Position numbers and translations under genes: made by a program
Notes under the pieces: generated by a model
What the model saw: only the letters and a program-made list of their open reading frames with translations
What the model was told of the DNA's origin: nothing
The model's database searches: none
Shown: in pieces, positions 4,247 to 17,105 of the stretch
Layout: the number at the start of each line of letters is the position of its first letter
Numbering within the stretch: the first letter of the stretch is position 1
DNA from: Candidatus Thorarchaeota archaeon
GTDB taxonomy: Archaea > Asgardarchaeota > Thorarchaeia > Thorarchaeales > Thorarchaeaceae
Length of the DNA stretch: 17,105 bases
Assembly (NCBI GenBank): GCA_016839605.1
Contig: JAEOTX010000167.1
Coordinates: 1 to 17,105, forward strand
Direction: 5' to 3'

Positions 4247-4723
4247 TCACTCCTCTCCGATGTCCTCATTCCATATGTCAGGATTATCTCGGGTGAACTC
4301 CTCCATCATCTCAATACATTGTTCATCATGCAATACGACAACATGAACTCCTCGACTTCGCACATAGTCCTCGGGACCTTGGAATGTCTTATTTTCACCA
4401 ACAATAACAATTGGGATCCCGTATAACAACGCAGCTCCACTGCACATGTCACATGGCGAGAGGGTGGAGTACAGAGTCGATCTACCGTAATCAGAAGGAG
4501 ATAGACGACCTGCATTCTCGAGAGCGTCCATCTCAGCATGAAGAATCGCACTCCCCTTCTGCATTCTTTGATTGTGCCCTCTACCAACAACCTTGCCATC
4601 GATTACTAGCACAGATCCGATTGGTATCCCTCCCGCGGCTAGGCCCTTCTTCGCTTCAGCTATTGCCTCAGCCATGAATCGTTTCATTTCTTCATCAGAT
4701 GGCATTCTTCGTTCCATTGACAT
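4247..4723 (-). CDS. Cytosine deaminase, yeast FCY1-like (CDA-fold zinc deaminase)
   Basis: HAE...PCDMC zinc motif. GGIPIGSVL, GRGHN, LENAGRL, TLYSTLSPCDMCSGA, GENKTF and the C-terminal WNEDIGE closely match the FCY1 type. Start is uncertain (GTG 4726, ATG 4723 or later ATGs). Confidence 0.88.
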   Translation of the reverse strand: MSMERRMPSDEEMKRFMAEAIAEAKKGLAAGGIPIGSVLVIDGKVVGRGHNQRMQKGSAILHAEMDALENAGRLSPSDYGRSTLYSTLSPCDMCSGAALLYGIPIVIVGENKTFQGPEDYVRSRGVHVVVLHDEQCIEMMEEFTRDNPDIWNEDIGEE

Positions 4724-4773
4724 CACGCCTCTCGGTTAGGGGGTCGGCAGGATAAAGATGTGGTGGAATCCTG

Positions 4774-5688
4774 TCATTCAATGTCTTTCAGCGGCTTGTT
4801 GAATATATCAAATCGTGAGTAGTGGCCGCTGATATCAAAATTCTGACGCTCCTCAATTGCAGTTTGAGTGTCCATATCAACGTAGACTATCCCTTCTTCA
4901 TCTACAAGTGGCTCAGTAACAAAGCGTCCAGTTGGATTAGAAACAACAGTTCCACCGTTCATCCAATTTGCATCAAACGACTCCATCGCTGCTATCATTG
5001 GAAATTCATCCTTTGTCAGATGAGAGAAGTCCGTTGGACGAAGGAATCCAGACACCGAAATGACCCATGAACGCCCCTCGAGTGCGATGAACCGAGTTAT
5101 GTCCTGCGTGTTTCTTAGGTTGCCGGGCCATACAGCTACATGGATGAGCTCCCCTTGCATATGCAGAGATGCTCGTGCTAGGGGAAGCCAGTTCTCCCAG
5201 CAGTTGAGTCCTCCAACTCTAGCGTCTTTCAAAGGGTAAGTTCTCAACCCCGCACCATCACCATCTGCCCAGACTAATCGCTCCTCATAGGTAGGCTTGA
5301 CTTTGCGATGACGGCCCAAGATGCCCCCGTCTTGGCCTATAGTAAGCAATGTGCAGTAGATTGAACTCCCTTCCTTCTCTGCGATTCCACCCATGAACAT
5401 GATTCCTAGTTCTCGTGCTAAAGACCTCATCTCTTCAACAATAGGCCCATCAAGACTCAGCGCCTCTCTCCAGTATGTGGAATAAGCAGTCTTCTGATCT
5501 GAATCATTGAACCGAGCTCCGCCAGAGGGCGATAACCAGACAGGATAGCCAGGAATCAGCGTTTCACCCCAAGTCACCAGCTCTGCACCTTTGGTCTTGG
5601 CCTCTCGTATACTAGAGGCCAGTTTCTTCCAAGTTTCTCTGGCATTGAGAAATACAGGAGCAATCTGGATTCCTGCGACACGAATCAT
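4774..5688 (-). CDS. Carbon-nitrogen hydrolase, branch-1 nitrilase-like
   Basis: GETLIPGYP (Glu), HRKVKPTYEER (Lys), LNCWENW (Cys) and C-terminal DISGHYSR. Confidence 0.9.
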   Translation of the reverse strand: MIRVAGIQIAPVFLNARETWKKLASSIREAKTKGAELVTWGETLIPGYPVWLSPSGGARFNDSDQKTAYSTYWREALSLDGPIVEEMRSLARELGIMFMGGIAEKEGSSIYCTLLTIGQDGGILGRHRKVKPTYEERLVWADGDGAGLRTYPLKDARVGGLNCWENWLPLARASLHMQGELIHVAVWPGNLRNTQDITRFIALEGRSWVISVSGFLRPTDFSHLTKDEFPMIAAMESFDANWMNGGTVVSNPTGRFVTEPLVDEEGIVYVDMDTQTAIEERQNFDISGHYSRFDIFNKPLKDIE

Positions 5689-5720
5689 AGAGATGGTTCA
5701 GACGGGGTACAAGAAAAGTT

Positions 5721-5784
5721 TGCTGAACGGAATACAAACTAGTTATGCCAAGCATGTGAGCTAGCCATATCTAATCGTTCAGCA
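5721..5784 (-). other. Long imperfect intergenic hairpin (candidate structured RNA, terminator or palindromic element)
   Basis: TGCTGAACG (5721-5729) and CGTTCAGCA (5776-5784) form a perfect 9-bp stem. Inner GAUAUGGCUAG/CUAGUUUGUAUU pairing (with GU) and an AUGC-UUG-GCAU tip form on the minus strand. Confidence 0.45.
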
Positions 5785-5804
5785 GAAATGGGATTAATTG
5801 TAAT

Positions 5805-6110
5805 CTATTCTGGAATCCACAGCGGCTTCAGTTTGACAGCTTCTGACTCTAGACGAATCGCTTCAAGTTTCTTTGTCAGGTCAGCGTAGCGTTCATCGCT
5901 GCGCAGTTGGTCAGTCTTGCTTTTGTAGTCAGCCTCATCCTCATATTTTGAGAGATAGTAGGCCTCTTGCGAATCAGCAGCGTTCTCCCAGAAGCCGATG
6001 ATGTTCACTTTGTATTTCTTATAGATGCCCTCGAACTCAGATCTTAGCTCATCGAGTTTACCCGGAGTGCCATCTTTCGATTTTGTGCGATAAAGCATGT
6101 AAATTGCCAT
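5805..6110 (-). CDS. NIPSNAP-like / dimeric alpha-beta barrel small protein
   Basis: IYMLYRT..GKLDEL...YKKYKVNIIGFW...YYLSKYEDEA...LKPL pattern typical of NIPSNAP domains. ATG 6110 is preferred, with GTGA upstream as SD. Confidence 0.65.
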   Translation of the reverse strand: MAIYMLYRTKSKDGTPGKLDELRSEFEGIYKKYKVNIIGFWENAADSQEAYYLSKYEDEADYKSKTDQLRSDERYADLTKKLEAIRLESEAVKLKPLWIPE

Positions 6111-6221
6111 AATAATCACTGAACTAAACTATAGTTAATTCTTTTTATGTCTTGGCATGGCTCTATTCATATGCTGGAATGACTACCATGCGTAAGTCAT
6201 GGACAATAGCGAGCTGATAAA

Positions 6222-6671
6222 ATGTTGAAAGAGAGGAACGAGGAAATAGGAAGACGATGGTTTGTTGACATGTGGGGTAAACCCAATCCAGATTTGGCTG
6301 ACGAATTAGTAGACAAAGACTACAATCCAAGCTGGGTATCAATTGATGCAGTAGGCCCGGACCAGATAAAACACGAGATCAAGTACTTCAGGTCAGTCTT
6401 TCCCGACCTGAAATATGAAATAGTGGATGTGATAGGGACCGAAGAAAAGGTTTGGATACGATACAGAGGGAAAGCGACGCACAAGGGGAATGCCTGGGGC
6501 TTTAAGCCCACCGAGAAAGAATTCGAGTATGAGGGCGCAACTATACTCTATATCAGTCCAGAGGGGAAGGTAGTGGACCGATGGGGAGCATTCTGTTTTT
6601 ATGACATATTCACGGAGTTGGGACTAGTTCCTCCTTTCTGGGAACTAAGTAAACACTTCAGAAAAGACTAG
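6222..6671 (+). CDS. SnoaL-like ester cyclase / NTF2-fold protein
   Basis: W..PNPDLADELV, FRSVFPDLKYEIVDVI, VWIRYRGKATHKG..WGFKPT and EGKVVDRW. Confidence 0.85.
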   Translation: MLKERNEEIGRRWFVDMWGKPNPDLADELVDKDYNPSWVSIDAVGPDQIKHEIKYFRSVFPDLKYEIVDVIGTEEKVWIRYRGKATHKGNAWGFKPTEKEFEYEGATILYISPEGKVVDRWGAFCFYDIFTELGLVPPFWELSKHFRKD

Positions 6672-6681
6672 GAATATCCGA

Positions 6682-6858
6682 TTATTTACGGGTCCTCTCC
6701 CTTTCAGCAATCCACCCGAGGAAGCAAGGCCAGCCTAAAATGCCATAGCCCCCAAAATAAGGGACTCCTGTAACTAGTTCAATAATCTCCATTGATAGGA
6801 ATACGACTCCAATCGCGAGAAGGCTACTTGTGTGAGCAAGGCAATGCGGAGAATTCAT
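6682..6858 (-). CDS. Possible small two-helix membrane protein (58 aa)
   Basis: From ATG 6858: MNSPHCLAHTSSLLAIGVVFLSMEIIELVTGVPYFGGYGILGWPCFLGWIAERERTRK. It has a hydrophobic hairpin with a basic tail and fills the gap between two genes without overlap. No family recognised. Confidence 0.35.
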   Translation of the reverse strand: MNSPHCLAHTSSLLAIGVVFLSMEIIELVTGVPYFGGYGILGWPCFLGWIAERERTRK

Positions 6859-6880
6859 CTGTAGGACTGCACTCCTAAGC

Positions 6881-7642
6881 ATGAGGCGTGCTGGATTGAC
6901 TGAAAGACTCAAGGAACTCGAACGTGTACATGAAGAGGTTAGACAGGACCCCCACAATGTGTCGGACGATACGAGGAAGTACTTCTGGAAGTTGGTGCGT
7001 CAGATTAAGAGAGAAACGAGTCCCAATGAGAAAGAGATTGCCGTGGCCGCTGAGGTCCGGGACCTTCTGTTCGAAGCTAGTCGAGGTAAGACCTACCGAT
7101 TAGGTGTGACTCTTGGGATTATGATTCTCATAGGAATGGTACCACTACTTGTGTATCTATGGCTGCTCCAGACACCACTCATTTGGAGTAACATCCTAGG
7201 TTGGACTATGGATGATATCTGGCAGTTTATCTTCCGATTTCTCTGCATCATGGGTGTTGTCGCGTTGTTCTATCCCGTAGGACGGTTGATTGCAGGAAAG
7301 GCACTGGGAATACGTCTCCTAGGGATATGCAGAGACCAATACTATGAACCTACAATCAAGATTGACTATGTGACCTTCCTAAAAGCCCCGCCTCCCAAGA
7401 GAAAGTGGTTCTTCTTCTTTGCAGGTTTTTGGACTGTTATTACTTCAATAATATTGGGGATGGTAGGACTCGTTATAGGCGGCGATGTCACTGGATTCAT
7501 ACCTGCAGTCGTCCTGCTGCTCTTTGAGGGATATGTTGTGTATAGCGGCAATCCAAGTCCATCAAAGGGAGAGATGGGACACTACAACAGAGAGAAGAAA
7601 ATAGAGAAGGTCTGGAGAAAGAAATTGGCTGAAGCTGACTAG
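6881..7642 (+). CDS. Membrane protein with degenerate M50 (site-2 protease)-like architecture
   Basis: Charged helical N-terminus, then about 4 hydrophobic segments. FYPVGRLIAGKALGIRL, KRKWFFFFAG and GNPSPSKGEMG lie where M50 HExxH, AG and NxxPxxxxDG motifs would be. The start may be TTG 6896. Confidence 0.75.
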   Translation: MRRAGLTERLKELERVHEEVRQDPHNVSDDTRKYFWKLVRQIKRETSPNEKEIAVAAEVRDLLFEASRGKTYRLGVTLGIMILIGMVPLLVYLWLLQTPLIWSNILGWTMDDIWQFIFRFLCIMGVVALFYPVGRLIAGKALGIRLLGICRDQYYEPTIKIDYVTFLKAPPPKRKWFFFFAGFWTVITSIILGMVGLVIGGDVTGFIPAVVLLLFEGYVVYSGNPSPSKGEMGHYNREKKIEKVWRKKLAEAD

Positions 7643-7747
7643 GAAGCAGTAATCGGCCAGCGACAAATCTTGAATATACAGGCTCAAGCAACCAATGACC
7701 GGGGGCAGCACAAATAAGGACCCTTCGCAAGAGGTCTACTGCGTTTA

Positions 7748-7755
7748 GGAGGTGA
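7748..7755 (+). promoter_or_regulatory. Shine-Dalgarno motif GGAGGTGA
   Basis: Full archaeal SD 6 nt before TTG 7762. Confidence 0.75.
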
Positions 7756-7761
7756 CTGAGT

Positions 7762-8571
7762 TTGGAGTCCGAAGAGAAGCCAAACGCTTCCAAACTCGCA
7801 GTAATGCGTGTCTATGGTGCTTCAGGGAGCACTGTGAAGAGTGGAATTGAAACAATCATGGGCGTTCATCCAGGAGGAAAATCCATTCATTCCAAAGAAA
7901 CAGGAACTGTCACGGTTAAGTCGGAGATCCACACACACTTCGAAGGATCAGATTGTGGTGGCGGTGGTGGTGGTGAAGGCGAACTCCTGTGTCTCATCGT
8001 TGTAGCCATAATAATGGCAGTTTTTGCGATCGTATGGTCTGTTGTGATGATTGCGTTCTCAATTGTGACCATTGGCGGATTCGTGAAGAGACGCTATCGC
8101 ACTATTGTCATCATAGGAAAGGAGAATATCGAGTTCATAGGAAAACTCTCAGTATTTGTGTCCCGAAGGGGCGGAGTTTCGGATTACACATTGGGGAACG
8201 TACAGTATGACGAATGGAAGGATGATACGTTTAGTCTCTTCATGCGACTGAAGCACCTTCGACAGGGCAGTCTTCTGCTTGCCTTTGGTTGGGGCATTAT
8301 TGAGATTGGGTTTAAGCTAAATCAGATACTCTTTGATCCCACCGATTACTATCTTTGGCCGTTCAGGTATGTGATGATTGCGATCTTTGCACCCCTCATC
8401 TTCTACAGCCCAGTTCTTGAGATGACAATAAGAGGGAAATTCGATGAGGGAGAAGACATCCATGCAAGACTGGTCATGAATGAGCCCAGATACAACCCAG
8501 ATATGTCAATGGACTTTGAGCAGAAGCCTGTGATTGGAGAAAGCCTCCCTGCTTCTCTTGCAAAGGAATGA
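7762..8571 (+). CDS. Hypothetical membrane protein with poly-Gly linker
   Basis: Strong SD and 269 aa. DCGGGGGGEG precedes a ~30-residue hydrophobic segment, and two more TM-like segments lie near the C-terminus. Confidence 0.8.
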   Translation: MESEEKPNASKLAVMRVYGASGSTVKSGIETIMGVHPGGKSIHSKETGTVTVKSEIHTHFEGSDCGGGGGGEGELLCLIVVAIIMAVFAIVWSVVMIAFSIVTIGGFVKRRYRTIVIIGKENIEFIGKLSVFVSRRGGVSDYTLGNVQYDEWKDDTFSLFMRLKHLRQGSLLLAFGWGIIEIGFKLNQILFDPTDYYLWPFRYVMIAIFAPLIFYSPVLEMTIRGKFDEGEDIHARLVMNEPRYNPDMSMDFEQKPVIGESLPASLAKE

Positions 8572-8583
8572 TTATTGGACCTC

Positions 8584-9039
8584 TTAGATGATGTATGGTA
8601 TTTGAGGCACATCGATTCCAAGCAGGCGATAATAGACTGTTATCTGGCCGCGATGATGGATGGAGTGCTCAATCACCTCTAGGAGAATCTCTGAGGCCTT
8701 TGCAGGGCGATTGAACGAACTGGTAGACTTCTCGAGGTCTCTATCGCTTAACTTATCCACACATTCGCGTGCTCTGTCAAAAACCTCACGGCTCAGCCCC
8801 TTAACGGCCTCAGCGGTATTGTATTCTTTAAGTGAATATGATAAGGGAACCCATTCATTCTGTGTGAGACCTACCATATAGAAATCAATAGATCTGAGCA
8901 TGTGAAGAAGGATTTCACCCACAGGTCGTCCATCCTTGATAGGGACTTTCGCTAGATCTTGATCGACTATTTGATCAATGAGGGGTTGTGTTTCATCAAG
9001 ATGACGTTTCAGTGCGGTGCTCAAGAACTGATGATGCAT
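8584..9039 (-). CDS. DinB/YfiT family metal-binding four-helix protein
   Basis: RPVGEILLHM and IEHSIHHRGQITVYYRLLG motifs give the His triad. Confidence 0.9.
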   Translation of the reverse strand: MHHQFLSTALKRHLDETQPLIDQIVDQDLAKVPIKDGRPVGEILLHMLRSIDFYMVGLTQNEWVPLSYSLKEYNTAEAVKGLSREVFDRARECVDKLSDRDLEKSTSSFNRPAKASEILLEVIEHSIHHRGQITVYYRLLGIDVPQIPYII

Positions 9040-9104
9040 ATGGAAACCATCCTAATATCGTCAACCAGCAGCAATAGAAAAACTAGACGATACGCCTATT
9101 CTAC

Positions 9105-10193
9105 TCATGGATTTGAGGCTGCGGTTTCGACCGGTTGACTCCAGATTCCTTTTTCGAGCTCAGCCATCCTTTGGAGTCGACCAAGAGAATGGAACATGGA
9201 GGCAGATTGTCCAACTTCCATGAACCCGGCCTTCTTGCAGGCACTCCTAAGAGTTTCAGCCCTTGAGTCAACGAACAGGTTTGCCATTGGACAGTCCAGT
9301 GTATCCTTGGCAATCTCTTTAGCTCTGTGAAGAACTGTGGCGATCACATCTTTAGTCTGCATGGCCTCACTGAGAATCAGATTGCCAATCACGGCCATTC
9401 TATCTGTTGCTCCGGGTCCAGAGAAATCAGATGAAGATACCGTGAGCATCCCGGAGAACTCATGGTCCTTGGTGATGGAGATCATCTTGAGTGCTCCATC
9501 GGCTCGTGGATTTGTCATCCACTTGACGTACTCTTCGTCTAGTTGTAAAGTCCCGTTAGGAAGCTCATTCTCCTTTTGGGCGCGTAGTGCAACTTCACCA
9601 ACAGTTCTACCTTCAGTAATTTCGATTTGGCATAGGTTCTTGTCAATCCGCATGTTTCTGAAGGAATCAAGCAGACTCAGTGCTAGTAGAGGTATAGCCT
9701 GTCGACGTTTACCAAACCTTGCCGCGCGCCTATATTGAAGAACACTCAGCATATTGATGCAGTGAGTACTAATCTCAAAGCCTACACGTTTGTAGATGCG
9801 AATAGCTGAACCATTTGGATCTGCGCTAAGGTGAACTCCCCAGCAATTCGTTTCGCGTGCTCGATTAATGGCATGCCTCATCAGTGTGGTGGCAAGTCCC
9901 TGTCGCCTCCACTGCGGGTGAGTCGATACATCATCAATCAATGCGACTTTCTTCGGATTTCCATTGACCATTATTGTTCCATAGGTCATTGATAATGCGG
10001 CGGCAAGTTCGTCCTCTTTCCGAATCATGAGAATTGACTCGGGGTCAAAGCCGGGCCTTTGTATATATCTCCAGATCCAGGACGAAACAGTTCGTGGAAA
10101 GTAATAATCCGCCTCGCCAAAGGATGTTTCGAACAATCCTACTATCTCTTCTTCATCTCCTGGTTCAAAAGTCTGAATCCTGTCGGAGGGCAT
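9105..10193 (-). CDS. GNAT N-acetyltransferase (two-domain, Eis-like)
   Basis: Acetyl-CoA motif A (DVSTHPQWRRQGLA) and AIRIYKRVGF, with a second degenerate GNAT half ending in KKAGF. Confidence 0.85.
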   Translation of the reverse strand: MPSDRIQTFEPGDEEEIVGLFETSFGEADYYFPRTVSSWIWRYIQRPGFDPESILMIRKEDELAAALSMTYGTIMVNGNPKKVALIDDVSTHPQWRRQGLATTLMRHAINRARETNCWGVHLSADPNGSAIRIYKRVGFEISTHCINMLSVLQYRRAARFGKRRQAIPLLALSLLDSFRNMRIDKNLCQIEITEGRTVGEVALRAQKENELPNGTLQLDEEYVKWMTNPRADGALKMISITKDHEFSGMLTVSSSDFSGPGATDRMAVIGNLILSEAMQTKDVIATVLHRAKEIAKDTLDCPMANLFVDSRAETLRSACKKAGFMEVGQSASMFHSLGRLQRMAELEKGIWSQPVETAASNP

Positions 10194-10224
10194 TGCTTTC
10201 TCCTAATCAGGACGTGGCTTCGCG

Positions 10225-10230
10225 ATATAA
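10225..10230 (-). promoter_or_regulatory. Candidate TATA box (TTATAT) for the GNAT gene
   Basis: About 31 nt upstream of ATG 10193, consistent with archaeal short-leader spacing. Confidence 0.4.
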
Positions 10231-10241
10231 GAAATAGGTTC

Positions 10242-10262
10242 ATTGACTGTCTTACAGTCAAT
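10242..10262. promoter_or_regulatory. Perfect 9-3-9 inverted repeat ATTGACTGT-CTT-ACAGTCAAT, candidate transcription-factor operator
   Basis: Directly visible in the divergent spacer between the GNAT and zinc-ribbon membrane genes, just upstream of the candidate TATA box. Confidence 0.55.
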
Positions 10263-10359
10263 CGACTTGTCAGAGGTTCAGAACTGATAAATAGAGCGTG
10301 TGCTCTCATGGTTTCGCCTGAATCCTTGGTCTAAGGCCAGAGGAGCGGGGGGAATGTAG

Positions 10360-10929
10360 ATGCAGTTTACATCAGACCCTAGTATGAATTTCCTCATCAC
10401 ATTGTTTGTGGTGATGCTGATAACTTGTGTTTGTGGCAGATCATGTAGACGAGGTGACAGTGGAAGTAGCGGGGGTGGCGGTGGTGTAGGAGTACCTGGC
10501 ATTTCTCGCGGTTCTGTTAGAGGATGTGGAATGGTCTTCATAGTCCTCGGTATGGCGTTCTTCTACTCGTTTGGATACTACGGCTGGGGTATTGCGGCAC
10601 CCTTTTTGGTAGTTGGTTTGTGTCTGACCGTCGCTGGTTCAATTGCAGGAGGGGAGGAGGGAGATCAATCCTATGCTCCAACTCCCACAAGACCACATCC
10701 AGCTCCAAGAGGCGTTTCTGATACCCCGAAGGATGACTTGCTATTCAGAGCAGCTAGATTTGCTGAGCAGGAAGGGTTGTTGGAGAGACGACAGGATCCC
10801 TATGATTCTGCTCTTTTGATACCCGTCTATAGATGTCTATCATGTGGTCAAGAAACAGACTTTCGGGATCTCAACATAACAGACGACGCAATACCGTGCT
10901 TTCATTGCGGGAAACGAGTTGACTTCTAG
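10360..10929 (+). CDS. Membrane protein with Cys/Gly-rich linker and C-terminal zinc ribbon
   Basis: N-terminal TM segment, CVCGRSCRR plus a poly-Gly linker, two TM segments, a Pro-rich linker and C-terminal CLSC-x17-CFHC. Confidence 0.8.
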   Translation: MQFTSDPSMNFLITLFVVMLITCVCGRSCRRGDSGSSGGGGGVGVPGISRGSVRGCGMVFIVLGMAFFYSFGYYGWGIAAPFLVVGLCLTVAGSIAGGEEGDQSYAPTPTRPHPAPRGVSDTPKDDLLFRAARFAEQEGLLERRQDPYDSALLIPVYRCLSCGQETDFRDLNITDDAIPCFHCGKRVDF

Positions 10930-10953
10930 ATCCATCCATTAGTGCTAATGGGA

Positions 10954-11307
10954 CTAGATATCTGAGTAGTTGATGGTCAGGAGGATTAGGTCCAAGTCGT
11001 TGGTGTTTCTGTAACCATGCGACTGTCCAGCTGGGACTCTCACAATCAGTCCCGGCTTAATCTCATAGGATTCAGCTCCCAACCAACCTTCGCCCTTACC
11101 CTTCAGGAATAGGAAGATGTGATTGAAGTCGTCAGCATGAATGGAGAATTCGCCTTTAGGCTCAACTCTCGTGAATGTCACAGAATGTACATCAGCCCCC
11201 TTAGGAACAATTCTGCTTCCTAGAACTCCAGCAGTGACGTCTGGTCTTATGGATTCCCAAGGAAGTTCAGCCCAGTCCTGAATTAGGTCGTGATCCATTG
11301 ACAACAA
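10954..11307 (-). CDS. Cupin domain protein
   Basis: EPKGEFSIH...FLFLKGKG...IKPGLIVRVPAGQSHGYRN cupin motifs. The start may be ATG 11298. Confidence 0.88.
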   Translation of the reverse strand: MLSMDHDLIQDWAELPWESIRPDVTAGVLGSRIVPKGADVHSVTFTRVEPKGEFSIHADDFNHIFLFLKGKGEGWLGAESYEIKPGLIVRVPAGQSHGYRNTNDLDLILLTINYSDI

Positions 11308-11378: not shown

Positions 11379-12197
11379 TTACAGGTTAAGAATTGCTCTT
11401 GCGTCTTTAGGCGTCGCTACTTTTCGACCCATAGTTTCAGCAAGCGTAGATGCTCTAGCAACGAGTTCCTCATTTGTAGCCAGTCTGCCCTTTGAGAGGT
11501 AGAGGCTATCTTCAAGTCCAACTCTCACATGACCTCCTGCTTCTATCGACAGGGTTGTCATACTGAGCTGTGTTCTACCAATGCCTGCCACCGTGAATAT
11601 ACTACTCTTTGGAAGTTGCCGTATCATATGCAGAAGGTTTTCGGTTGTGCCAGGAATACCTCCATCAACGCCCATGACTAGTTGAAATAGGGCGGGCAGA
11701 CGAACTAAGCCCTGTTCAATGAGCTTGATGCCCTGTTGTATGAAACCCACATCAAAGGCCTCAAGCTCTGGTTTAATGTTTAGCTTGCTCATTGTTTCTG
11801 CAAGATAGGTTATGGTTTCCCATGTATTCACATACACCAAAGATGGTTTTCTCCCTGCAAAATTAAGTGACCCAGTCGTAAGACTAGCCAATTCCGGATT
11901 TGTTTTGAGTGGTTCAGCTCTTTCCTCATCAGACTTGCCAGCAATACCACTGGTGGACACCATCACAACGAGGGTAGTTCGTTTACGTATCTTGTCTACT
12001 GTTTCCTGAAACAACTGATAATCTGAGGTGGGATTCTCATTCTCGTCCCGACAATGGACATGTACAACGGACGCGCCCTCTTGCTGGCACAGGTATGCTG
12101 TTTCAGCAATCTCGTCTGGTGTTATGGGCACATGAGGTGTATCCTTCTTCCGCGGGACGGATCCAGTGGGAGCAACAGTGATTATCAGTTTCTCCAT
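11379..12197 (-). CDS. Beta-keto acid cleavage enzyme family (BKACE/DUF849, Kce-like)
   Basis: LIITVAPTG, PHVPITPDEI, GASVVHVHCRD (Zn His pair), KPELEAFD and GGHVRVGLED. Confidence 0.93.
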   Translation of the reverse strand: MEKLIITVAPTGSVPRKKDTPHVPITPDEIAETAYLCQQEGASVVHVHCRDENENPTSDYQLFQETVDKIRKRTTLVVMVSTSGIAGKSDEERAEPLKTNPELASLTTGSLNFAGRKPSLVYVNTWETITYLAETMSKLNIKPELEAFDVGFIQQGIKLIEQGLVRLPALFQLVMGVDGGIPGTTENLLHMIRQLPKSSIFTVAGIGRTQLSMTTLSIEAGGHVRVGLEDSLYLSKGRLATNEELVARASTLAETMGRKVATPKDARAILNL

Positions 12198-12328
12198 CGC
12201 TAAAACTCCGGACTGTAATTCTGAACACCGTTACCACAATGAGCCGCTGACTTCTTATTCAGCATTGTGTACACTGAGTTCTTGCCAGCATTGAGTGGGA
12301 TTGCTGGGTAAATGAAGAGGGTGATAGC

Positions 12329-13618
12329 ATGCGCTTATCGCTTGTTACAAAGAATCTGAAGCCTTCTGCTACTTTAGCTATGAATGAGTTGATTTCTGAA
12401 AAGCAGCGAAGAGGAGAACAAGTCTATCATATGGGATTTGGTCAGTCTCCATTCCCAATTCATCCTAGTATTCGTGAGGCTCTTTGCAATCATGCAGATG
12501 AAAGAAGGTATCTTCCTACTCAAGGAATACATGCTCTTCGAAACCAGGTTTCGGAGTTCTATTCCAAGATGTTTGGGTTGGACTATTCTTCAGAGCAGAT
12601 TATCATTGGTCCTGGCAGCAAAATACTCCTCTTCGATGCGATGATGTGTTTGGAGGGCTCCGTCTTCCTGCCTTCTCCGTCTTGGGTCAGCTATGACCAA
12701 GAAGCACATCTTTTGGGGAAGGACATTCACTACATTGAAACACATCCAGAGACTTCGTATCTGTTGACTCCGGAGGCTTTGGAAAGTGCGATTAGGCAAC
12801 ATAGCCCAACTCTTGGACAGCAGAAGATACTAGTATTGAATTACCCATGCAATCCTACTGGCTGTAGTTATTCTAAAACTCAGTTGAAAGAGCTAGCAGA
12901 CACTGCTCGAAACCATAACGTGCAGATACTCTCAGATGAGATCTATGCGCTTCTGAGTTTCCGAGATCATGAACATCACAGTATTGCCGAGTTCTATCCT
13001 GAGGGGACTATCTTAACAGGTGGTCTTTCTAAGGACCGATCTGCGGGAGGATTTCGAGTAGGAGTCATGCTGCTCCCAGAACAGGAACAAGATCTTCTGA
13101 AGGCAATTTTGGCGGTCGCAAGTAACACTTGGTCATGTGTGGCGGCACCAATACAATATGCGTCCCTTGAAGCTTACCGACCAACTCCTGAGATCACTCA
13201 ATACATTGCGGACTGCACATCGATTCACGAATTGGTTACTAGAAGTGTTCACCAGAAACTAATAACTCACGGAATTCGGTGTCCTCGTCCACAAGGTGCA
13301 TTCTATCTATTTCCGGATTGGAATAGCGACAGGGATGTAATGCAAAGAGGAGGAATCACCACATCCGTCGAGCTGGCGGGAACAATTCTAGAGAAATGGA
13401 ACGTAGCAAGCCTTCCGGGTATGGACTTTGGGATGCAATCCGATGATTTTTGCATTCGAGTAGCCACTGTTGACTATGATGGAGAGGGTGCACTGGAGCG
13501 ATTTAGGGCCGACCCAAAAAGAGCATGGCGAAATCCTAACGAGTTCGTCAAGGAGGTTGCGCCACGAATAATCATGGCATGTAGTCAGCTAGGTAGCTTC
13601 ACGGACTCAATTCGCTAG
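12329..13618 (+). CDS. Class I/II PLP aminotransferase (aspartate aminotransferase-like)
   Basis: LKPSATL, GFGQSPFP, PSPSWVSY, LNYPCNPTG, LSDEIY and LSKDRSAGGFRVG (PLP Lys), with SD GAGGGTGA upstream. Confidence 0.92.
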   Translation: MRLSLVTKNLKPSATLAMNELISEKQRRGEQVYHMGFGQSPFPIHPSIREALCNHADERRYLPTQGIHALRNQVSEFYSKMFGLDYSSEQIIIGPGSKILLFDAMMCLEGSVFLPSPSWVSYDQEAHLLGKDIHYIETHPETSYLLTPEALESAIRQHSPTLGQQKILVLNYPCNPTGCSYSKTQLKELADTARNHNVQILSDEIYALLSFRDHEHHSIAEFYPEGTILTGGLSKDRSAGGFRVGVMLLPEQEQDLLKAILAVASNTWSCVAAPIQYASLEAYRPTPEITQYIADCTSIHELVTRSVHQKLITHGIRCPRPQGAFYLFPDWNSDRDVMQRGGITTSVELAGTILEKWNVASLPGMDFGMQSDDFCIRVATVDYDGEGALERFRADPKRAWRNPNEFVKEVAPRIIMACSQLGSFTDSIR

Positions 13619-13640: not shown

Positions 13641-14513
13641 TCAGATGGTGAATATCAACCAGAACAGTATAATGATGCCTAGTAGAACATAGACTGGACT
13701 CAGGATTATGACTCTCTTATCGATGAGTCTGAAATTTCTGAAGATGACTATGCCAGCGAATAGGTAGAGGAATATTGATGCTTGAAGTATTGGCTGGGAA
13801 TGCACAAGCAGGGATAGGCAAAAGATTAGTGCGGTTGCGCAAAATAGTAGCGGCTCATGCGTCACCGATTCGCCCAAGGTTAGATTCTTCTTGTAGCCTT
13901 TGAAAAGAACCACATACATGAGAGAAAATCCAAGAGCAAAAAGAAATGGGAACTGAGTAAGATTCGTTGTGAATGCCCATGGAAGAAGCAATTTCAGAAT
14001 CTGCATTGCTGATATTAGTGGCAATGCAGCAATAGAATGCTTGAAGCTGATTGGGTGTGTCTTATTGTCTTGAGATTCTTGGAGGAGAGACCGTTTGTTT
14101 GATAGACTGAATATTGGAATTGAATAAAGAGCATTGATGATTATCAGAATAGACACAATGCCAAAGAACTTCAAGTCAACAAGGAGGGAGAGTAGAAGAC
14201 CTATGATAAGGAGGGATAAGCCAATTTTGATTGCCTCATCTTTCTCAATTGACCCCAAAACCAGTGGTTTTCTCATGGTTTTTACCGGAGTCATTTCATC
14301 TTCTGCAATATCGAACAAATCATTGAGCACGTAGACTGAAGAATAGGAGATAATGAATGCAATCAAACCCACGAGTGTGGCTACAACTTCGAAACCATAT
14401 CCAGAAATTACAAGAAGTAGGATGCCAACTGCATAGAGTCCAATGTTCTTCGGGATGTTGTCCACTAGATTCTTGAATAGTAGAGTCTTGCGAATCATAA
14501 TTGCATTACTCAA
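13641..14513 (-). CDS. UbiA-family prenyltransferase-like membrane protein
   Basis: YVLNDLFDIAED...K..RKPLVLG first Asp-rich motif, NALYS and many TM segments. No clear second Asp-rich motif. Confidence 0.82.
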   Translation of the reverse strand: MSNAIMIRKTLLFKNLVDNIPKNIGLYAVGILLLVISGYGFEVVATLVGLIAFIISYSSVYVLNDLFDIAEDEMTPVKTMRKPLVLGSIEKDEAIKIGLSLLIIGLLLSLLVDLKFFGIVSILIIINALYSIPIFSLSNKRSLLQESQDNKTHPISFKHSIAALPLISAMQILKLLLPWAFTTNLTQFPFLFALGFSLMYVVLFKGYKKNLTLGESVTHEPLLFCATALIFCLSLLVHSQPILQASIFLYLFAGIVIFRNFRLIDKRVIILSPVYVLLGIIILFWLIFTI

Positions 14514-14564: not shown

Positions 14565-14906
14565 CTATCTGATGTATGGTCCTGTTTGGATGATCCAAAG
14601 TCCATCTTTGGAAAGACCGTCTGGCAACAAAACAGCGATAAGACCTACTACCATCAACAGAAGGCTAATTACAGAACCGGGTATTGCGATATCGAGATAG
14701 GTTTGATTCAAGCCTGCTGCGCCAGTATATGCCGCGACTAGCGATACACATGCTCCGAGAATAATGAGTGACGCCATTAGAAAGACACCGGTCACTAAAG
14801 CAACCTTCCCAACTCTCCTTCTGATTGGAGTCACACTTTGATCCTCTGATTGTCTTTCTGTCAACGTGTTTCTAGCTAAAATATGCGTATTTACTGAAAT
14901 AAACAT
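14565..14906 (-). CDS. Small hypothetical membrane protein (2 TM)
   Basis: RRRVGK followed by two long hydrophobic segments. The ORF-track TTG start (14924) lies inside the repeat, so ATG 14906 or TTG 14864 is more likely. Confidence 0.6.
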   Translation of the reverse strand: MFISVNTHILARNTLTERQSEDQSVTPIRRRVGKVALVTGVFLMASLIILGACVSLVAAYTGAAGLNQTYLDIAIPGSVISLLLMVVGLIAVLLPDGLSKDGLWIIQTGPYIR

Positions 14907-14918
14907 TGAGTCAAAGAG

Positions 14919-15012
14919 AACCAATGAGGTTGACCTGCACAGGATGAAGGCATTCGTTACAACTCTTGAACCTTGACAACTCTAGGTACTGCGCGAGCTC
15001 ATGTTTCCGACT
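14919..15012. repeat. 94-bp direct repeat, copy 1 (duplicate of the 23S 3' trailer)
   Basis: Ungapped alignment to 15960-16053 gives 87/94 identity, and 14949-14998 is a perfect 50-bp match. Confidence 0.97.
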
Positions 15013-15041
15013 TCATCTCTTGGTTTTGAGTGAAATCTTTG

Positions 15042-15051
15042 TGTTTCTGAC
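15042..15051. repeat. Third copy of the 10-bp junction motif TGTTTCTGAC
   Basis: Identical to 16043-16052 and one mismatch from 15002-15011 (TGTTTCCGAC). Confidence 0.6.
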
Positions 15052-15059
15052 GTCTTCCA

Positions 15060-15830
15060 TCACGATTCAGCAACTAGCCACTTGCATATCCTCAACATGA
15101 AATCCCATTCGGAGTCAGGGTCCTGCGCTGAATCATAAACATCAGTTCCATCCCTATCACTACCCTCTTCGTACTCAGGATGTGGGCTTGAAAGGAAGAC
15201 TGTTCCATTTCCAAACTTGAAGACGATCATGCATGGCAAACTAGTATTGACGTATGTAGCTACTGTGGCTATCCCAGTCATGTCATCTGCATCGAAATAG
15301 CCTGATGCTTCATAGAGGATTTCGTATGATTCAGGTTCTTGAGAGAGGTCAGGAGAATCCAGATTGGTGTTGACGGTCACTTCCAGAAGGAAATCGCCTG
15401 CGCCATATGTGTCCGGGTAGAGTGTTCCGTGGAAGATATCAAGCCTGTAGCTTGTCGCATAAGATGCGCCTCCATCAATGCCAAAGTACGAGCCCCCATT
15501 CTCAATGAACTCACGGATGATGTTCATCTCATCCCCCATGATTTGACACCGTTCAGTGCACCAACAGCCACTAGGCATGACAAGAATGTCTACAGTATCA
15601 AGTATACCATCATTGATGTCAACGGCTTCTATAATAGAGACCTCGGCATGCATCCATTCGAACATATTCTGAAGCGCTATGCGACTCGTAGCCTGAACTC
15701 CTCTATCAGTGTATATGGCTACTTGAACGCCTTCCATTCCAGTAGTCATTGGAATAAAGACGACCGCAGTAATCAGCAATGTTGCCGTCAGGATCACTGC
15801 AAATCCAATCTTAACGCTTTGCCTTGGCAT
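15060..15830 (-). CDS. Membrane-anchored/secreted BPL-N-like (class I glutamine amidotransferase-fold) protein
   Basis: N-terminal hydrophobic anchor, VAIYTDRGV, DILVMPSG, IREFIENGGSYFGIDGGASYA and GNGTVFLSSPHPE, as in biotin-protein-ligase N-terminal domain proteins. Confidence 0.82.
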   Translation of the reverse strand: MPRQSVKIGFAVILTATLLITAVVFIPMTTGMEGVQVAIYTDRGVQATSRIALQNMFEWMHAEVSIIEAVDINDGILDTVDILVMPSGCWCTERCQIMGDEMNIIREFIENGGSYFGIDGGASYATSYRLDIFHGTLYPDTYGAGDFLLEVTVNTNLDSPDLSQEPESYEILYEASGYFDADDMTGIATVATYVNTSLPCMIVFKFGNGTVFLSSPHPEYEEGSDRDGTDVYDSAQDPDSEWDFMLRICKWLVAES

Positions 15831-15856
15831 GACTCTATTCCATCAGAATTGCCAAA

Positions 15857-15864
15857 CTAAAAAA
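15857..15864 (-). promoter_or_regulatory. Candidate TATA-like box (TTTTTTAG) for the BPL-N-like gene
   Basis: 26 nt upstream of ATG 15830, typical leaderless archaeal spacing. It could instead be a U-tract terminator of the rRNA transcript. Confidence 0.35.
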
Positions 15865-15959
15865 CGTAGGCGTTAGCGCATCGACACCGAACACTCTGTA
15901 CTGGGGGACTATAGTGGTGAATTTTCAACAGTTGCATTACAAATATCATATCAGAAGAA

Positions 15960-16049
15960 AACCAATGAGGTTGACCTACAAAGGATGATGGCATTCGTTA
16001 CAACTCTTGAACCTTGACAACTCTAGGTACTGCGCGAGCCACTGTTTCT

Positions 16050-16053
<4 letters not shown>
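15960..16053. repeat. 94-bp direct repeat, copy 2 (23S rRNA 3' trailer)
   Basis: Abuts or overlaps the predicted 23S 3' end and ends on the minus strand in a pyrimidine tract (UUGGUUUUCUUC). Confidence 0.97.

Positions 16054-17105
<1,052 letters not shown>

Follow-up and report, generated by a model that had tools for sequence, protein, structure and literature searches.

Direct copies of the predicted 23S rRNA processing-stem arm delimit variable gene cassettes behind the 23S rRNA gene in Thorarchaeota

In a metagenome-assembled genome (MAG) of Candidatus Thorarchaeota, the 3' end of the 23S ribosomal RNA (rRNA) gene is followed by two direct copies of a sequence of about 100 nucleotides (nt), which bracket a single protein gene. 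We analyzed this locus in a stretch of 17,105 nt (hereafter the window), which is the complete contig JAEOTX010000167.1 of GenBank assembly GCA_016839605.1; the assembly comprises 3.08 Mb in 259 contigs and is 80% complete. Genomes, contigs and loci are designated below by G, C and L numbers, the present assembly being G000 and the window G000:C102. An earlier note, made from the letters of the window, had described two 94-nt copies (14919-15012 and 15960-16053), and realignment reproduced its figures: the copies align without gaps at 87/94 identity, the longest perfect run between them is 50 bp (14949-14998 = 15990-16039), and the spacing is 1041 bp. A repeat search extended the pair to 102 nt with 91% identity and the same spacing. 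The rRNA-adjacent copy is called REP_a and the distal copy REP_b (Table 1). Because the modelled 3' end of the 23S rRNA lies at 16049, REP_a begins 7 nt inside the 23S. The BPL_N-family gene is the sole gene between the copies, and a small membrane open reading frame (ORF) and then the gene for a UbiA-family prenyltransferase lie beyond REP_b, all on the rRNA strand.

Table 1. Features at the 23S end of the window (BHB, bulge-helix-bulge; aa, amino acids)
Feature	Position	Strand	Evidence
Archaeal 23S rRNA, 3' third (model positions 1999-2987), truncated by the contig end	16049..17105	-	Rfam RF02540, 858.8 bits
REP_a, predicted working 23S 3' trailer, 3' strand of the processing stem	15955..16056	-	Cofold with own leader; same stem in four relatives
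Predicted BHB 3' half within REP_a: GCGCAGU, ACCU, bulge AGA, GUUGUCAAGG	16012..16035	-	Cofold structures
T-rich, TATA-like box in a conserved motif about 30 nt 5' of the cassette ATG	15856..15880	-	Alignment of four species
BPL_N-family cassette gene, 256 aa, class I glutamine-amidotransferase-like, N-terminal hydrophobic anchor	15060..15830	-	Pfam PF09825, E 4.6e-13
REP_b, putative spare distal trailer copy; 50-bp core 14949-14998 identical to REP_a; intact BHB half-site 14971-14994	14914..15015	-	Repeat search, alignment, leader cofold
Small two-helix membrane protein, 89-119 aa by start codon choice	14565..14924	-	ORF
UbiA-family prenyltransferase	13641..14513	-	Pfam PF01040

Archaeal rRNA processing stems contain BHB motifs (PMC7038931, PMC7714728), and the earlier note had proposed that the repeat supplies the 3' arm of such a stem, with its partner in the 23S 5' leader. 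The rest of the 23S gene, i.e. its 5' part, was found together with about 170 nt of leader on contig C60 by BLAST with the 23S of a relative, whose 5' part and leader are matched at 96% by C60:1-1167. When REP_a was cofolded with its own leader, a long stem was obtained at -128.8 kcal/mol, compared with -98 +/- 4 kcal/mol for shuffled trailers, and REP_b with the same leader gave -116.8 kcal/mol against -95 +/- 4 for shuffles, so that folding the core against the leader, as the note had suggested, yields the same BHB with both copies. This BHB adjoins helix 1 of the 23S and is a canonical 3-4-3 motif with flanking helices of 7 and 10 bp: the leader strand (CCUUGACAAC, AGGU, bulge AAU, ACUGUGC) pairs with the trailer strand given in Table 1, and the two 3-nt bulges (leader AAU, trailer AGA) lie on opposite strands with a 4-bp helix between them. 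The same stem was predicted in four relatives with complete 23S genes, with compensatory leader and trailer changes farther out. One such position distinguishes the two copies, since the leader segment GGAUGAUGG pairs with CCAUCAUCC in REP_a, and REP_b has CCUUCAUCC, without the compensatory A. Self-folding of the repeat beyond that of shuffles was not seen on either strand of either copy (z between -0.6 and +0.4), in keeping with the note's expectation. The cofold with the leader, the BHB and the compensatory changes in relatives together identify the repeat as the 3' strand of the 23S processing stem.

Repeats of this kind are not confined to the window. A profile search recovered two to six direct copies right behind the 23S in further members of the genus (G016, G013, G010, G006, G009, G002, G014 and G011) and arrays behind the 23S in two other genera (G018 and G017); a contig of G005 that begins inside a repeat carries four, and metagenome contigs L076, L079 and L085 also have arrays. 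Every copy is in the rRNA orientation. The blocks between the copies mostly hold one to three genes in either orientation, about 4 of 10 cassette genes in relatives being antisense to the rRNA and the repeats by a count from the array maps, and the cassettes measure 0.3-2.5 kb and lack mobility genes; one block, in G003, reaches 9.5 kb (L032). Clustering of the 101 ORFs in and just beyond the arrays gave 66 protein clusters, and the first block behind the 23S is of at least nine different kinds among 14 genomes, as read from maps and clusters. The cargo includes GNAT and MarR-GNAT acetyltransferases, nitroreductases, DUF4760, pterin-binding and solute-binding proteins, methyltransferases, an ABC-2 permease, small membrane proteins and many unknowns. 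Some cassettes are shared among genomes with differing neighbors: the MarR-GNAT cassette occurs in G016, G005 and G015, and the pterin-binding cassette in G013, G002 and G006. Arrays thus appear widespread in Thorarchaeota, and the window would represent the smallest, one-cassette state.

The earlier note had named invariant gene content across relatives as evidence against two of its models, an attL/attR-like scar of a cassette captured at the rRNA 3' end and a repeat-plus-gene array growing behind the rRNA. The gene content varies and therefore supports both, and we favor the two together. The two to six repeats and the changing cargo in relatives agree with this reading. The attL/attR likeness in the scar model implies an integrase, and none was found (see below).

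Within the genus, the UbiA and small membrane genes form a conserved distal flank of the variable region. The UbiA gene is present in L024, L026 and L034, with matches on G015:C13, G011:C84 and G002:C49; the small membrane protein, which has no Pfam match, belongs to cluster 3, with members in L017, L024, L026 and L034. In the relative G016, the small membrane gene is itself a stand-alone cassette flanked by two repeats. As for the cassette in the window, the BPL_N gene has a G+C content of 46%, equal to that of the genome, and the T-rich, TATA-like motif in front of it is kept in the four species with the BPL_N cassette while the adjoining spacer is variable, suggesting that this motif is probably the cassette's own promoter. 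A T-rich run that closes REP_a may be the rRNA terminator. No known RNA family was detected in the repeat or the cassette (Rfam, E up to 1), and no tRNA in the window.

We compared the conservation of the two copies with that of the gene between them. Between species, identity is 0.90-0.96 for REP_a, 0.82-0.89 for the BPL_N gene and 0.64-0.82 for REP_b. The BPL_N orthologues in G009, G002 and G014 differ at 52-73 of 256 third codon positions (21-29%) and at 12-24 second positions; the differences thus fall mostly at third positions, indicating purifying selection on the gene, and the divergence of REP_b set against that of third positions indicates that REP_b evolves at approximately the synonymous rate. 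The BHB half is fully pairable in 13/13 rRNA-adjacent copies of the genus, compared with 13/39 other copies. REP_b does not behave as a maintained working arm: it is less conserved than REP_a, G009 and G014 have a broken half-site, and a 17-nt deletion in G001, the closest relative (94% identity), takes in the outer BHB helix. The best-conserved part of the distal copies runs from the BHB bulge to GGTCAACC, i.e. downstream of the BHB cut. Because four species share the order 23S, REP_a, BPL_N and REP_b, the insertion predates their split.

The perfect 50-bp core stands out against this drift. The earlier note, which saw mismatches at the flanks only, had taken this as a hint of selection or gene conversion; the variants speak for conversion. 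In G000, REP_b has TTCAAGAG, as does REP_a of the same genome, and the REP_b copies of G009 and G002 have TTCAGAAG, the only variant from which the G001 deletion can be derived. The best and simplest account of the core is that REP_a recently converted REP_b, after G000 and G001 had split. This conversion indicates that the host recombination machinery does act on these repeats.

The boundaries of the distal copies were also examined, with positions given relative to the rRNA-adjacent copy. Their starts range from 68 nt inside the 23S to +47, and some copies in relatives carry 30-68 nt of the 23S 3' end, compared with 7 nt in the window. Their ends lie at +80-82 or +88-96, with some at +29-72 (overall +29 to +96). 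In the shared cassettes, the pattern of variants places a junction just after CATCCT (+66) in three cassette families: the upstream cassette takes along the 5' two-thirds of a repeat, and the final 15-30 nt go with the downstream cassette. For instance, in three genomes where its neighbors differ, the MarR-GNAT cassette retains repeat sequence of its own on both sides of the junction, a 5' part as far as CATCCT and a 3' part beyond it, and the homology of the pterin cassette begins at the same point. A split of the repeat at +66 resembles the splitting of attC in an integron; the scattered left ends fit homologous exchange better. Note that one exact crossover cannot be mapped from the homology ends because the repeats themselves are homologous.

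We then looked for machinery that might move the cassettes. Genes for a recombinase, transposase or mobile-element nuclease were not found among about 60 proteins encoded in the window, in arrays at 15 loci and upstream of the leader. Tyrosine recombinases (PF00589, which would include Xer-type enzymes) and serine recombinases (PF00239) were not detected in G000 (80% complete) or in the array-bearing G002, G011 and G017; family-wide, PF00589 was present in 11/31 genomes and PF00239 in 10/31, never on array contigs. No TnpB- or Cas1-like gene occurred among the array proteins scanned, guide RNAs not being part of this search, and two conserved repeat patterns had no match in a viral contig collection. 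By analogy with the position of intI beside attI, the neighborhood of the leader was inspected and contained no integrase, the genes there being rph, a nucleotidyltransferase gene and a gene for a WD40 protein. The RNase PH gene (rph) lies upstream of the 23S leader on the same strand (C60:997-2233, L062). An attC-like hairpin was ruled out because the repeat folds no better than shuffles, and an integron was ruled out because both defining features, the attC hairpin and IntI, fail; moreover, the cassettes are not co-oriented.

Two other origins of the repeat pair could be dismissed. BLAST and profile searches of the 3.08-Mb assembly found full copies only at these two sites, which excludes a generic dispersed repeat, and in a public genome collection the repeat patterns matched only Thorarchaeota-type and other Asgard-labelled MAGs. 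An assembly artefact is excluded by the recurrence of the order 23S, repeat, BPL_N, repeat, small membrane gene and UbiA in the independent MAGs G009, G002 and G014, which come from other studies and assemblers; G001 shows the downstream part of this order, and the arrays behind the 23S on metagenome contigs are independent as well. These were two of the outcomes that the earlier note had listed as refuting its proposals. A single-contig 'chromosome' MAG (G004; L016, G004:C1:1720001-1739000, CP070658.1) has an array headed by only the last ~280 nt of the 23S, with no other 23S match in that genome; the missing part probably reflects a gap in the assembly where the rRNA gene lies, and for this reason the closed relative could not arbitrate the continuity of the array. 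Elsewhere in G000, one additional 25-nt fragment of the core (C244:3866-3890, L088) covers the BHB half-site with ~20/24 matches to it. This fragment directly follows an endonuclease/exonuclease/phosphatase-family gene, has a Ras-family GTPase gene nearby and is separated by 1.1 kb from another gene of the BPL_N family (5018-6007); it may be a piece of a decayed array on a different contig.

Taken together, we think it probable that the locus is a 23S-anchored cassette array turned over by recombination in the trailer copies, with host homologous recombination as the most likely agent. REP_a would be the working 3' arm, which forms the BHB by pairing with the leader and is cleaved by the splicing endonuclease, and REP_b would be a displaced spare copy at the far edge of a one-gene insertion, the BPL_N gene with its own putative promoter. 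Recombination inside the trailer copies would add, lose and shuffle cassettes. No DNA nearby is better conserved than the trailer and the 23S end, which could hence act as a landing pad for incoming DNA of diverged relatives. With no role in rRNA processing, REP_b would drift neutrally as a scar that recombination occasionally refreshes, and in G000 a recent conversion from REP_a may have reset it. Several points weigh against this interpretation. No recombination event was seen directly, and the genomes surveyed are 62-98% complete, so that a recombinase could have been missed or could belong to an unknown family. Strictly direct repeats and small cassettes would also suit a trans-acting site-specific enzyme, as would the clustering of the right-hand homology ends at +80-82 and the junction after CATCCT in the three shared cassettes. 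Furthermore, homologous recombination explains the shuffling, not the origin of the first trailer duplicate or of a brand-new cassette, and the single cassette of G000 predates the split of four or five species and so gives no sign of recent mobility here.

The strongest competitor, which we nevertheless regard as unlikely, is site-specific integration: each cassette would have entered as a small circle with its own trailer-like site, and a dedicated trans-acting recombinase, either of an unknown family or with its gene elsewhere (on a plasmid or a virus), would have recombined this circle with the trailer next to the rRNA. The locus would then be a functional integron analogue with the 23S trailer as attI. 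The direct repeats, the cassettes of 0.3-2.5 kb without mobility genes, the repeat halves that travel with the MarR-GNAT cassette, the common starting point of the pterin cassette homology and the clustered right-hand ends are all as expected from such an enzyme, as is the conservation of the distal copies from the BHB bulge onward; in addition, archaeal integrons and clusters of attC sites lacking integrases (CALINs) are enriched in Asgard archaea and are mostly integrase-less arrays (Ghaly et al. 2022, PMC9668308). However, tyrosine and serine recombinases were not found in four array-bearing genomes and are sporadic in the family, the repeat forms no hairpin, the left-hand boundaries span a range of more than 100 nt, the site was not seen in any viral contig, and the distal sites decay at a neutral rate and are therefore not maintained as recombination sites. 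A decayed integrative element is far less plausible still. According to this explanation, a plasmid or provirus integrated at the 23S 3' end and then lost its integrase and most genes, which would fit the distal copies with 30-68 nt of 23S, reminiscent of the displaced fragments of islands in tRNA genes (tDNAs), and the 9.5-kb block between repeats in one relative. But there was no integrase fragment among about 50 ORFs of the arrays at 15 loci, decay would have to have been tidy time and again to leave ~1-kb blocks whose repeats are well kept, the G+C content of the cargo is that of the host, and the cargo families have host paralogues.

The third model of the earlier note, alternative processing arms, is disfavored by evolution. 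In read-through pre-23S RNA the leader would pair with REP_b instead of REP_a, and the products of BHB cleavage and ligation would be an excised 23S that includes the cassette RNA, or a leader fused to downstream mRNA, so that cassette expression would be coupled to ribosome biogenesis. The complementarity check proposed in the note does not refute this model, as REP_b can form the BHB with the leader. That REP_b of G000 has a perfect half-site and pairs with the leader well beyond shuffles, that 13 of the 39 other copies in relatives keep the half-site, and that the portion downstream of the cut is the best conserved in distal copies are in its favor. Nevertheless, its drift at about the synonymous rate, its breakage in G009 and G014 and its half-deletion in G001 indicate that this is not a conserved function; REP_b also lacks the compensatory A common to the REP_a/leader pairing, about 4/10 cassette genes are antisense to the rRNA, a T-run closes REP_a, and the cassette has its own conserved promoter-like box. 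We accordingly hold the model to be very improbable. A combined possibility, in which the stem arm would be the recombination site of an integrase-free gene-capture platform and a distal arm that is intact, as in G000, would in addition be used at the RNA level, also seems to us highly unlikely. In this scenario the leader would pair with the distal arm, splicing endonuclease and ligase would take out the 23S in the manner of a giant intron, either alone or along with the cassette, and the leader, transcribed from the rRNA promoter, would be joined to downstream cassette mRNA.

Gene-capture sites are known at tRNA and transfer-messenger RNA (tmRNA) genes, where they depend on integrases, and integrons depend on hairpin sites and IntI. 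Hypervariable region 2 (HVR2) of SAR11 is reportedly a bacterial hypervariable island between the 23S and 5S rRNA genes, inside the rRNA operon. It shares with the arrays the anchoring of a hypervariable island on the large-subunit rRNA gene, the conserved rRNA being a likely recombination anchor, and differs in being bacterial and within the operon. Additive flexible islands such as fGI-2 of Methylophilaceae, in which the final 20 nt of tRNA-Lys recur as repeats (PMC10872708), likewise have a variable accessory stack beside a stable-RNA gene, same-direction copies of the gene end and contents that differ between close relatives. The present arrays, however, are anchored on an archaeal 23S gene, their repeat of about 100 nt is mostly transcribed trailer rather than mature RNA, and the mobile-element genes used by those islands (integrase, transposase, phage) were not found in the arrays. 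Islands of the Islander type carry a tyrosine integrase gene and have tDNAs as their targets (PMC4383910); islands in tDNAs and tmRNA genes resemble the arrays in that a regenerated gene end and a displaced direct copy bound the insert, the displaced copies in relatives including 30-68 nt of the 23S 3' end. Unlike them, the window has a single-gene block with no integrase, and only 7 nt of mature 23S are duplicated.

Integrons and CALINs share with the arrays small, mostly one-gene cassettes without mobility genes, repeats of ~60-130 nt and accessory cargo. In contrast, the repeats described here are not imperfect palindromes and do not fold, IntI is missing, the cassettes have both orientations, and the repeat copies a working rRNA-processing element. 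As an archaeal processing stem, REP_a with its leader would be a textbook case, a long stem with a 3-4-3 BHB by helix 1 of the 23S, whereas additional genomic copies of one arm are foreign to the known processing system. None of the additive islands, tDNA islands, integrons and HVR2 is known to use an rRNA trailer, and an integrase is required by the first three. Arrays delimited by trailer copies did not turn up in our search of the literature.

In the Asgard archaea, the prokaryotes most closely related to eukaryotes, an rRNA gene's tail would thus serve as a capture site, with neither integrase nor hairpin. Should homologous recombination on a conserved processing element suffice to build and shuffle cassette arrays, this would be a simple and overlooked route of accessory-gene flow, and it would also explain why MAG contigs break at rRNA genes in these lineages. 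The spare BHB half-sites offer a natural test of how far archaeal rRNA processing tolerates decoy arms, and the window is a small but informative example, in which one can see that the constraint on the spare copy is relaxed and that a conversion took place.

Some further observations concern the rRNA genes. A second copy of the 16S trailer was not found in G000, nor was a 5S rRNA (RF00001) detected in this 80% complete assembly. The 16S gene (C82:4369-6699, part of which is covered by L003) is unlinked from the 23S; it spans 2131 nt against a model of 1478 positions and therefore carries introns or insertions. Near its 3' end, ~28 nt between GGATC and TCACCTCCT may be a mini-intron. In a Thorarchaeota relative of another genus, a group I intron (RF00028, 114 bits) lies inside the 23S (L027:12054-12384, G018:C46), and the 23S of G012 has an insertion of ~270 nt close to the 3' end.

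Downstream of the UbiA gene, the window contains a run of small single-domain accessory genes (4247-11307), comprising cupin, GNAT, DinB, SnoaL, NIPSNAP, deaminase and two nitrilase-family genes, which is partly syntenic in G009 and has no detectable repeats. The segment between this run and the UbiA gene (11396-13602, 2206 bp), with class I/II aminotransferase and BKACE genes, is missing from G001. No trailer repeat occurs at its ends, and the last 17 nt of the BKACE ORF are still present in G001, showing that the absence results from a deletion in that genome.

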